Source of the DNA: a virus
Lineage: Duplodnaviria; Caudoviricetes
Virus record (IMG/VR): IMGVR_UViG_3300025924_000001
Span: 1-64,000 of that record
Direction: 5' to 3' (one strand)
Length of the DNA stretch: 64,000 nt
Shown: positions 19,602 through 20,849 of the stretch, piece by piece
Layout: every line of letters begins with the position of its first letter
How positions within the stretch are numbered: position 1 is the stretch's first letter
Program-made: the position numbers and the translations under genes
Notes under the pieces: generated by a model
Database searches by the model: none
What the model was told of the DNA's origin: nothing
The model's input: the letters and a program-made list of their open reading frames with translations, nothing else

Positions 19602-20849
19602 ATGACGTACAAGTTTATTGATTGCCAAGGCTTTGCCGGCGGAATGGCGGTTGGCGCCACTCAGGCCGGCTTTCAGCTCGTCCACAAGGTCGAAAAGCGA
19701 GGCGGCTTCGGCCTGCCCCTCATGGACGCCAACCGCGCCTTCCTCGGTGAGGACTGGGGCTACGAGGTCGGTGACCCCGAGACCGACTGGGAGCCCACTC
19801 AGGCCGACGTCGTCGTCGGCACCCCGCCCTGCGCCGCGTTCAGCGGCATGACCTTCGGCACGAGCAAGCACGGCATCGACTCGTCGATCAACGAGTGCAT
19901 GTGGGACCTCACTCGCTACGCCGCTCGGGTGCGGCCCGCCGTCATGGTTATGGAGTCGGTCAGCCAGGCCTACACCAAGGGCGTCAGCCTCATGACCCGG
20001 CTCGCCGAGGAGCTCAACCACCTCACCGGTCTCTGGTACACCACCACGCACGTTCTTCAGAACAACCTGAGCGTCGGCGGCTGCACCAACCGCAAGCGCT
20101 ACTTCCTGGTGCTCAGCCAGGTGCCGTTCGGCGTGGAGCGACCCACCACGGACCGTGTCAACACCCTCGGTGACGCCCTCGCCGATCTCACCAGCCAGCC
20201 CCTCGACTGGGCGGCGCGTCCCTACGTCGACCCGGCCACGGCGTGGAGCAAGCCGCTGCGCCGCGACGACCAGCACGTGGACGGCCACGCCTTCCGCGAG
20301 AACACGTTCACCAAGCGCCTGGCCGACATCCACGCCGGCGCAGGTTGGGCTCCCGGTGAGCGTGAGGCTGACATCCTCAAGCGACACTACGAGCTGCACG
20401 GCGCGCTGCCCGAGTCGTACCAGTACCCACAGCCCGGGGCCAGCGGCCTCACCCGAGACAAGCACCTCCTCGAGCGCGGCTTCGACCCCGGTGGCTTCAA
20501 CCAGACCAGGTGCTGGTCGTGGGCCAACCCCGGCCGCGTTCTCAGCGGCGCCGGCGTCTACATGGTGTGGCACCCCAACGGCCGCGTCATCACCAACCGT
20601 GAGGCCGCCCGCATCATGGGCTTCCCCGACGCCTGGCTCATCGAGCCCGTCAAGGATGACCCGCAGCTTTCGTCGTACTGGGGAAAGGGCACCAGCGTCG
20701 CGCCCGCGCGTTGGGTCATGGACTGGGTTCGGGAGAGCCTCAACGGCAACCCGGGCAGCGTCACCGGGGACCCCATCGAGACCGGCGCGCGCCTCATCGA
20801 CGTCTCCCACGAGTGGAAGACCGCGCTCAAGCCTCAGGTCGTCTCGTGA
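19602..20849 (+). CDS. divergent C5-cytosine DNA methyltransferase-fold protein
   Basis: GTPPC (IV), MESV (VI), NRKR (VIII), REAARIMGFPD (IX), WGKGT (X variant), DCQGFAGG (I variant); TGnTAGGAT 7 nt upstream suggests a leaderless mRNA. Confidence 0.85.
   Translation: MTYKFIDCQGFAGGMAVGATQAGFQLVHKVEKRGGFGLPLMDANRAFLGEDWGYEVGDPETDWEPTQADVVVGTPPCAAFSGMTFGTSKHGIDSSINECMWDLTRYAARVRPAVMVMESVSQAYTKGVSLMTRLAEELNHLTGLWYTTTHVLQNNLSVGGCTNRKRYFLVLSQVPFGVERPTTDRVNTLGDALADLTSQPLDWAARPYVDPATAWSKPLRRDDQHVDGHAFRENTFTKRLADIHAGAGWAPGEREADILKRHYELHGALPESYQYPQPGASGLTRDKHLLERGFDPGGFNQTRCWSWANPGRVLSGAGVYMVWHPNGRVITNREAARIMGFPDAWLIEPVKDDPQLSSYWGKGTSVAPARWVMDWVRESLNGNPGSVTGDPIETGARLIDVSHEWKTALKPQVVS

Follow-up and report, generated by a model that had tools for sequence, protein, structure and literature searches.

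Positions 1 to 64,000 of IMG/VR record IMGVR_UViG_3300025924_000001, a Caudoviricetes virus (the 64,000-nucleotide window analysed here), encode a protein with the fold of DNA cytosine-C5 methyltransferases (C5-MTases) in which the asparagine of motif X is replaced by a lysine, Lys362. Sequence comparisons indicate that this lysine marks a real, uncharacterised, phage-specific family of C5-fold enzymes, referred to here as Lys-type. The function of the family is probably tied to 5-hydroxymethylcytosine (5hmC) in DNA. Our favoured reading, to which we assign a probability of about 0.4, is that the enzyme is a core post-replicative component of a 5hmC-type modification system in actinobacterial phages and acts on 5hmC DNA.

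The open reading frame (ORF) at 19602-20849 matches the Pfam C-5 cytosine DNA methylase model PF00145 with 63.5 bits (cut-off 22), and scores 40.5 bits against the NCBIfam dcm superfamily model (TIGR00675), for which the cut-off is 100.65. An AlphaFold2 (AF2) model of the protein, computed with 76 homologues as input, has a predicted local distance difference test score (pLDDT) of 95.4, and its top Foldseek matches are DNMT1, ZMET2, M.HaeIII, and M.HhaI, with E values from 1e-14 to 1e-18. The protein therefore has a DNA C5-methyltransferase fold with a full, DNMT1-like target-recognition domain. Because of this domain, and because add-ons fused to other Lys-type enzymes bind DNA (winged helix-turn-helix (wHTH), NUMOD3), the substrate of the family is DNA.

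Inspection of the translation shows that the enzyme contains the complete catalytic set of a C5-MTase, namely PPC (residues 75-77), Glu118, and Arg164/Arg166, as well as motif IX (TNREAARIMGFPD). Three residues of the S-adenosylmethionine (SAM) pocket are replaced: the motif I Phe by Gln9, the motif VI Asn by Ser119, and the motif X Asn by Lys362. A phmmer alignment with M.HhaI sets 'wgkgtsv', from the motif X stretch YWGKGTSV, opposite 'fgnsvvi', which places Lys362 at the position of M.HhaI Asn304. This position is occupied by Arg350 in SpCmoX of Synechococcus phage S-B43 (PDB 8YF3), a natural DNA carboxymethyltransferase that uses carboxy-S-adenosylmethionine (carboxy-SAM) only (PMC12783734, December 2025). 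The window enzyme also retains Glu31 and Asp58, together with the Gly-rich motif I loop. An earlier note, made from the letters of this DNA, had described the cytosine-activating residues (PPC, the Glu of ESV, RxR, and motif IX) as intact and motifs I (DCQGFAGG) and X (Lys362, codon AAG) as altered, and the translation agrees with it on both counts.

A search of 1.84 billion cluster representatives with a profile of the family gave 214 matches at E ≤ 1e-30. Conservation was assessed in a set of close homologues (n = 121, down to 42% identity) and in a representative set obtained by clustering at 50% identity, which comprised 150 of the 214 profile matches plus three cultured phages. Lys362 is kept in 119 of the 121 close homologues, and PPC, ESV, Arg164, Arg166, and motif IX in all of them. 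Among the representatives, motif X has Lys in 142/149 and Arg in 3, motif VI has Ser in 143/149, PPC is present in 134-135/137, Arg164 in 148/152, and Arg166 in 152/152. All 76 IMG/VR loci that span motif X read Gly-Lys. Retention on this scale in all three samples identifies Lys362 as a conserved hallmark and not a chance substitution. Motif IV takes the form T/N-PPC across the family, with TPPC in the window enzyme. The three members with Arg at position 362, as in CmoX (P0166, P0186, and P0254), retain the catalytic Cys and Glu, and in one Lys-type enzyme (P0244) an intein with Hint and LAGLIDADG domains interrupts PPC precisely at its catalytic Cys. Cellular C5-MTases recovered in the same scan mostly have GNAV or GNSV in motif X, two of them aligning poorly. 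Thermoprotei-type homologues on archaeal genome or metagenome-assembled genome contigs (L009, L013, L016, L025, L037, and L038) have GEAVP, with Glu replacing the Asn.

Relatives of the enzyme are found on viral contigs and among metagenomic proteins, and every member whose context could be resolved is viral. Cultured carriers are Micrococcus phage Kurnik and the Gordonia phages GMA2, Sixama, Forza, Boopy, BlueNGold, Mareelih, GodonK, and Phendrix; Actinomycetia phage DSL-LC01 is a further carrier. A search of 185,579 prokaryotic species (one genome each) returned no cellular Lys-type member among the matches listed, only distant ordinary C5-MTases of about 25% identity. Megablast of window positions 17000-24000 against phage records gave no match, and we found no published work on the family or on DNA modification in its cultured phages.

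Coupled changes around the methyl-transfer site run through the whole family: PCQ is replaced by PCS or PCA, ENV by ESV, and GN by GK. At least 95% of the approximately 150 representatives keep the catalytic Cys, Glu, and Arg residues as well as the trio Ser78(Ala)/Ser119/Lys362. In CmoX and M.HhaI, adenosine is contacted by Phe in motif I, Glu in motif II, Asp in motif III, and an aromatic residue. The motif I position in Lys-type enzymes is instead Q, H, M, L, N, or Y, with Phe in just 2 of 80 related viral loci. The motif II Glu (Glu31) is kept in 74 of these 80 loci and lost in 36/131 representatives; it is missing in the enzymes of GMA2, Sixama, and Kurnik and in the kinase fusion. The motif III Asp is present in 30/124 representatives. 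As Phe, Glu, and Asp are poorly kept while the catalytic set and the trio are not, the constants of the family appear to be attack on C6 and a remodelled pocket, with canonical SAM binding a variable feature.

The genes around the enzyme point to cytosine modification at the nucleotide level. A thymidylate-synthase homologue (9630-10580) falls far under the NCBIfam ThyA equivalog cut-offs and contains the motifs RDVPC and RSNDAWLGLPYD. In this superfamily, a catalytic Cys146 with Asp at N177 indicates deoxycytidine monophosphate (dCMP) as the substrate, an acidic residue at L143 indicates a hydroxymethyl product, and a retained Asp169 argues against 5-hydroxycytosine synthase (PMC13326640). 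The homologue has all four of these residues, a signature that predicts a dCMP hydroxymethylase rather than a thymidylate synthase; assignment as a 5-hydroxycytosine synthase was rejected on account of Asp169. Its nearest phage relatives, such as SPO1 gp29 and that of SP-10, are annotated as pyrimidine hydroxymethylases. The longest ORF begins at 9417, the likely start being the Met codon at 9630, which falls within the 3' end of the kinase-like gene at 8690-9643.

Of the 50 related viral records, 47 contain a homologue of this gene, among them all 28 with a completeness of at least 90%. D143, C146, D169, and D177 are present in 26/26 homologues examined and in those of GMA2, Sixama, and Kurnik. 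A MazG/dimeric-dUTPase-like gene, a candidate deoxycytidine triphosphatase (dCTPase), lies directly upstream of the C5 enzyme in 69/80 related loci. Lys-type phages are thus predicted to incorporate 5hmC as they replicate their DNA. Since a dCMP-hydroxymethylase-type homologue is found in every complete relative, C5 is predicted to be occupied before the Lys-type enzyme meets the DNA, and an ordinary C5 transferase would therefore have little to act on. Oxidation of 5-methylcytosine (5mC) to 5hmC was rejected as a route, as a TET/JBP dioxygenase (PF12851) is absent from the genome.

Directly downstream of the C5 enzyme lies a gene for an FkbM-family class I methyltransferase. The two are translationally coupled, as had been noted before, with the GTG start at 20846 overlapping the TGA stop at 20847-20849. 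The FkbM protein scores 55.9 bits against TIGR01444 (cut-off 37.7) and 31.5 bits against PF05050 (cut-off 22.7). Its AF2 model (pLDDT 95.2) matches FkbM 2py6, COMT, PrmA, and RNA methyltransferases in Foldseek, a range typical of generic class I O- or N-methyltransferases. The gene is present in 6 of the 50 related viral records (about 12%), and at least 15 FkbM-C5 enzyme fusions occur among the first 121 matches, with more among longer proteins. Stand-alone homologues of this FkbM subfamily number 10 in 5.8 billion proteins, several of them encoded on contigs equal in length to contigs with Lys-type enzymes, and tblastn of the FkbM protein against phages gave no match.

Other branches of the family have acquired different partners. 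A Methyltransf_23/UbiG-like domain, unrelated to FkbM, is fused to the enzyme in one branch and occupies the same syntenic slot after the MazG-like gene. In P0282 the fused partner is the helical domain of a 5-hydroxymethyldeoxyuridine (5-hmdU) DNA kinase (HMUDK; E 5e-40), and in IMG/VR record G020 a 5-hmdU-DNA-kinase-like gene lies directly upstream. This kinase was rejected as a general partner: the helical domain is found in 1/50 relatives and is absent from the genome studied here, and the kinase-like protein at 8690-9643 has no match to it. The enzymatic fusion and neighbour partners of Lys-type enzymes are all hydroxyl-directed. The remaining add-ons are DNA-binding domains (wHTH, NUMOD3) or the intein at the catalytic Cys, and C-terminal extensions of 95-196 residues in relatives were rejected as enzymes, being small DNA-binding or unknown domains. 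In G020 (locus L102, 5442-11239), the Lys-type enzyme is part of a compact cluster that looks like a sugar-nucleotide-fed DNA hypermodification operon: glycosyltransferase-like, UDP-glucose dehydrogenase, and NAD epimerase/dehydratase genes precede the 5-hmdU-DNA-kinase-like gene, and a MazG-like gene is also present. In another relative the enzyme lies a few genes downstream of UDP-galactopyranose mutase.

The genes discussed above belong to a phage replication and nucleotide-metabolism region with the order kinase-like protein, thymidylate-synthase homologue, dCMP deaminase, PolA, SNF2 helicase, PD-(D/E)XK nuclease, Sak4, 342-aa protein, MazG/dUTPase_2-like protein, C5 enzyme, FkbM, and DUF932 (Table 1). 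The 342-aa protein has no match in Pfam or NCBIfam. Among its nearest ESM Atlas feature clusters is PF09198 (T4-Gluco-transf, score 0.96), a lead towards a DNA glycosyltransferase, and a homologue lies near the C5 enzyme in 16/80 loci. The DUF932 gene is found downstream of the C5 enzyme in 46/80 related loci. Elsewhere in the window, a 309-aa protein with a C-terminal ADP-ribosyltransferase domain has homologues in 3/80 related loci, and an HAD domain of 'Swiss Army Knife' RNA repair proteins is encoded on the opposite strand.

Table 1. Features of the window discussed in the text (positions in the 64,000-nucleotide stretch).
Feature	Position	Strand	Evidence
Lys-type C5-cytosine methyltransferase-fold enzyme (K-clade), 415 aa	19602..20849	+	PF00145, E 2.9e-17; AF2 pLDDT 95.4
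Motif I, DCQGFAGG (in FIDCQGFAGGM, residues 5-15); Gln9 at the M.HhaI Phe18 position	19620..19643	+	translation, phmmer alignment
Motif IV, Pro75-Pro76-Cys77 (within TPPC, 74-77); Cys is the catalytic nucleophile	19824..19832	+	translation
Motif VI, Glu118-Ser119-Val120 (ENV in canonical enzymes)	19953..19961	+	translation
Motif VIII, Arg164-Lys165-Arg166	20091..20099	+	translation
Lys362, codon AAG; equivalent to motif X Asn (HhaI N304, CmoX R350, M.MpeI N374)	20685..20687	+	phmmer alignment
FkbM-family class I methyltransferase, 224 aa; GTG start overlaps the upstream stop (GTGA)	20846..21520	+	TIGR01444
Thymidylate-synthase homologue, dCMP-hydroxymethylase signature D143/C146/D169/D177	9630..10580	+	PF00303, E 1.6e-21
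MazG/dimeric-dUTPase-like all-alpha NTP pyrophosphohydrolase, candidate dCTPase; true start maybe downstream of 19131	19062..19511	+	PF08761, E 1.4e-6; phrog_18650
342-aa protein, candidate T4 beta-glucosyltransferase-like DNA glycosyltransferase (lead only)	18103..19131	+	ESM Atlas
dCMP deaminase	10837..11325	+	PF00383, E 2.1e-18
P-loop nucleotide-kinase-like protein, candidate deoxynucleoside monophosphate kinase	8690..9643	+	weak N-terminal dTMP kinase match, E 1e-3
DUF932 protein	21595..22521	+	E 3e-42
309-aa protein, C-terminal ADP-ribosyltransferase domain	24285..25214	+	PF03496, E 1.4e-8
HAD domain of 'Swiss Army Knife' RNA repair proteins	388..981	-	PF18143, E 1e-16

In the mechanism that we favour, the thymidylate-synthase homologue, the kinase-like protein, and the MazG-like pyrophosphatase would bring 5hmC into the DNA at replication, and the Lys-type enzyme would then flip the cytosine-derived base. 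Cys77 would attack C6 with the assistance of Glu118 and Arg164/Arg166, as in ordinary C5-MTases. Lys362 would lie where the transferred methyl group normally passes and, with the smaller Ser119 and Ala/Ser78, could handle the exocyclic CH2-O, acting as an acid/base or as a leaving-group ligand. The 5-methylene carbon would thus undergo substitution or exchange, in contrast to simple methylation of an unsubstituted C5, and in this phage the coupled FkbM enzyme may O-methylate the product or an attached sugar. A stricter form of this proposal is that the Lys-type clade is the first natural family to use the C5-MTase fold on 5hmC in DNA, with Lys362 aiding departure of the exocyclic oxygen (free or phosphorylated by a fused 5-hydroxymethyl-DNA kinase) and a nucleophile or new group being installed, to give an undescribed cytosine hypermodification of soil actinophages that FkbM would O-methylate in this phage. 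We put this form forward tentatively, as a possibility that we rate on the doubtful side. There is a chemical precedent in wild-type M.MpeI, which forms covalent complexes with 5hmC DNA and releases the hydroxymethyl group as formaldehyde (PMC11347137).

Several points weigh against action on 5hmC. The 5hmC content of these phages is a prediction from residues, and the placement of Lys362 relative to the flipped base comes from an alignment. All relatives belong to one broad actinophage lineage with a conserved gene order (Sak4, PolA, SNF2), and the co-occurrence of the enzyme with the thymidylate-synthase homologue and MazG could therefore reflect shared ancestry; the counts are not independent events. 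A SAM-type cofactor likely still binds the window enzyme, as Glu31 is kept both here and in most of the viral loci, and Asp58 is kept here. Finally, engineered Asn-to-Lys enzymes are still good SAM methyltransferases (PMC12015181).

These last results bear most directly on the possibility that the enzyme is a plain SAM-dependent 5mC methylase that tolerates the lysine, 'mopping up' unreplaced cytosines or protecting specific sites against host restriction, with the fused enzymes merely co-recruited to DNA. With SAM, M.MedI-N377K methylates >99% and M.MpeI-N374K 28% (PMC12015181), and the window enzyme has all the catalytic motifs intact, Glu31 and the Gly-rich loop of motif I in common with 74/80 viral loci, and a standard DNA C5-MTase fold with its target-recognition domain. 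We regard this as a serious contender, albeit an unlikely one, since the whole family shows a joint replacement of three polar pocket residues (Q to S/A, N to S, and N to K), Phe is nearly always missing from motif I, and about a quarter of the members, the three cultured phages checked among them, have lost the Glu of motif II. The score against the dcm superfamily model (40.5 bits against 100.65) also falls short, a fully 5hmC-substituted genome would offer scant substrate, and the repeated independent fusions to hydroxyl-modifying enzymes would be left unexplained.

The earlier note had inferred transfer of a group other than methyl, possibly carboxymethyl. As a broad statement, non-methyl transfer is plausible, given the family-wide remodelling of the pocket that surrounds C5 and the methyl group. 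Its more specific form holds that the window enzyme is a natural Lys-type DNA carboxymethyltransferase, with carboxy-SAM or some other anionic analogue of SAM as the donor and 5-carboxymethylcytosine (5cxmC) as the product, which FkbM would convert to a methyl ester in the manner of CmoM. Its appeal is that Lys at this position confers carboxy-SAM activity on M.MpeI, M.MedI, and M.CviPI (PMC12015181, PMC13288465), that natural CmoX has Arg there (PMC12783734), that Arg replaces Lys in three family members, and that a second methyltransferase fused downstream would suit esterification. The engineered enzymes, however, also keep SAM methylation (PMC12015181), so that the lysine by itself is not diagnostic of a non-methyl donor.

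The gene content speaks against carboxymethylation. In the published survey, 4257 CmoA sequences lie on contigs of 5615 candidate Arg-type CmoX (PMC12783734). The genome from which the window derives, complete at 111.9 kb and carrying terminal repeats, gives no match to CmoA (TIGR00740), which extends the note's caveat that no such synthase is recognisable in the window; nor do the 50 related viral records, of which 28 have a completeness of at least 90%. Corynebacterium glutamicum, the sole actinobacterial control, has no CmoA above the cut-off or at E ≤ 0.01. The suggestion that FkbM supplies the cofactor fails as well: the protein has no match to TIGR00740 at E ≤ 0.01, no CmoA appears among the listed Foldseek matches of its model, and a generic class I methyltransferase present in 6/50 records, replaced in other relatives by a fused methyltransferase of an unrelated family, was rejected as a CmoA analogue. 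Kinship to CmoX is not specific either, as SpCmoX matches the window enzyme with a phmmer E value of 0.017, weaker than the match to M.HhaI, and a search with the family profile fails to recover 8YF3 at E ≤ 1e-3. Lys-type enzymes do not conserve the residues with which CmoX contacts adenosine (two Phe, Glu, and Asp), and C5 is predicted to be occupied by a hydroxymethyl group. Carboxymethylation by the window enzyme is therefore distinctly unlikely; the main positive argument left for it is the lysine itself, and carboxy-SAM may be supplied by the host. By comparison, a side remark of the earlier note on 5hmC chemistry matches the gene context better than its main inference.

The enzyme might instead be a post-replicative cytosine hydroxymethylase that converts residual cytosine to 5hmC with a one-carbon unit at the level of formaldehyde, for instance through an iminium on Lys362, and so provides a handle for glycosyltransferases, kinases, and O-methyltransferases. 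When no cofactor is present, C5-MTases add aldehydes at C5 in vitro. The idea would explain why a universal enzyme is accompanied by variable hydroxyl-decorating partners, and the reverse reaction has been reported (PMC11347137). It is very unlikely, however, being redundant with the universal dCMP hydroxymethylase homologue and invoking a Lys-iminium mechanism that has no precedent in the C5-MTase fold, with no plausible in vivo one-carbon donor identified. Most improbable of all is a host-directed enzyme acting on the DNA of the host or of competitors alone, for instance so that methylation-dependent host nucleases are triggered or host functions blocked. This role would fit the predicted occupancy of C5 in phage DNA and the methyl-specific restriction common in actinobacteria, but it accounts neither for the invariant Lys/Ser/Ser pocket nor for the fusions to O-methyltransferases and a 5-hydroxymethyl-DNA kinase domain.

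Known phage routes to cytosine hypermodification either introduce 5hmC or 5-hydroxycytosine (5hoC) at the nucleotide level or write 5mC or 5cxmC on DNA. The Lys-type family would link the two, as a DNA-acting C5 fold that is universal in a large phage lineage predicted to contain 5hmC. If its members do work on 5hmC, they would represent new enzymatic chemistry for DNA and a possible 5hmC-specific labelling tool; engineered Asn-to-Lys enzymes are already in use for methylation sequencing. If they are plain methylases, Lys at motif X would be no predictor of carboxymethylation, which matters for CmoX-like database screens. The cultured phages, which grow on the harmless hosts Gordonia terrae and Micrococcus, make direct testing possible.

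Among characterized systems, CmoX shares with the window enzyme its phage origin, the C5-MTase fold, the PPC nucleophile, and a basic residue in place of the motif X Asn. The two differ in that CmoX combines Arg with SPPC, where the window enzyme combines Lys362 with TPPC, and in that CmoX retains the adenosine contacts Phe25, Glu47, Phe48, and Asp69, which the Lys-type family does not. CmoA and an amide ligase are the usual companions of CmoX; here CmoA is found in 0/51 genomes, and no ligase is seen near the gene. The published CmoX screen excluded the Lys-type family because it required SPPC plus Arg (PMC12783734).

The engineered carboxymethyltransferases M.MpeI N374K, M.MedI N377K, and the M.CviPI variants (PMC12015181, PMC13288465) carry the same Asn-to-Lys change in motif X. 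They are, however, single mutants with an otherwise normal SAM pocket and receive carboxy-SAM from the experimenter or from E. coli CmoA, whereas the lysine of the Lys-type family is natural and ancient and stands alongside the ENV-to-ESV and PCQ-to-PCS/A changes and the loss of the motif I Phe. With canonical C5-MTases such as M.HhaI, M.HaeIII, Dcm, and DNMT1, Lys-type enzymes share the fold, the motif order, the Cys/Glu/Arg set, and the DNMT1-like target-recognition domain; they differ from them at four sites, having replaced the Asn of both motif X and motif VI, the Gln that follows the catalytic Cys, and the Phe of motif I.

The chemistry proposed here has its closest likeness in side reactions of C5-MTases on 5hmC, such as dehydroxymethylation by M.MpeI (PMC11347137), in which addition of the Cys at C6 likewise activates the exocyclic carbon. 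Those reactions differ in being slow, catalyzed by ordinary enzymes, and without a biological role. Condensation of thiols on 5hmC DNA is another such atypical in vitro reaction of C5-methyltransferases, and to our knowledge no dedicated natural enzyme for C5-MTase-type chemistry on 5hmC has been described.

In the thymidine hypermodification pathways that employ HMUDK (PMC5889632, PMC8989533), a hydroxymethylpyrimidine is likewise made before replication and then activated and substituted on the DNA, and the kinase helical domain is fused to the Lys-type enzyme in P0282 and adjacent to it in G020. Those pathways use 5-hydroxymethyluracil (5hmU) and a substitution of the aGPT-Pplase type, whereas the base here is predicted to be a cytosine, the partner has a C5-MTase fold, and the window holds no HMUDK. 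The 5hmC system of phage T4 consists of the dCMP hydroxymethylase gp42, the dCTPase gp56, the kinase gp1, and the alpha- and beta-glucosyltransferases. T4 has neither a C5-MTase-fold enzyme nor an FkbM methyltransferase, and the hosts in the present case form an actinobacterial group. What the window shares with T4 is a thymidylate-synthase homologue in which the N177 and L143 positions are both Asp, along with an NTP pyrophosphatase of the all-alpha type, a dCMP deaminase, a kinase-like protein, and possibly a transferase resembling the T4 beta-glucosyltransferase.

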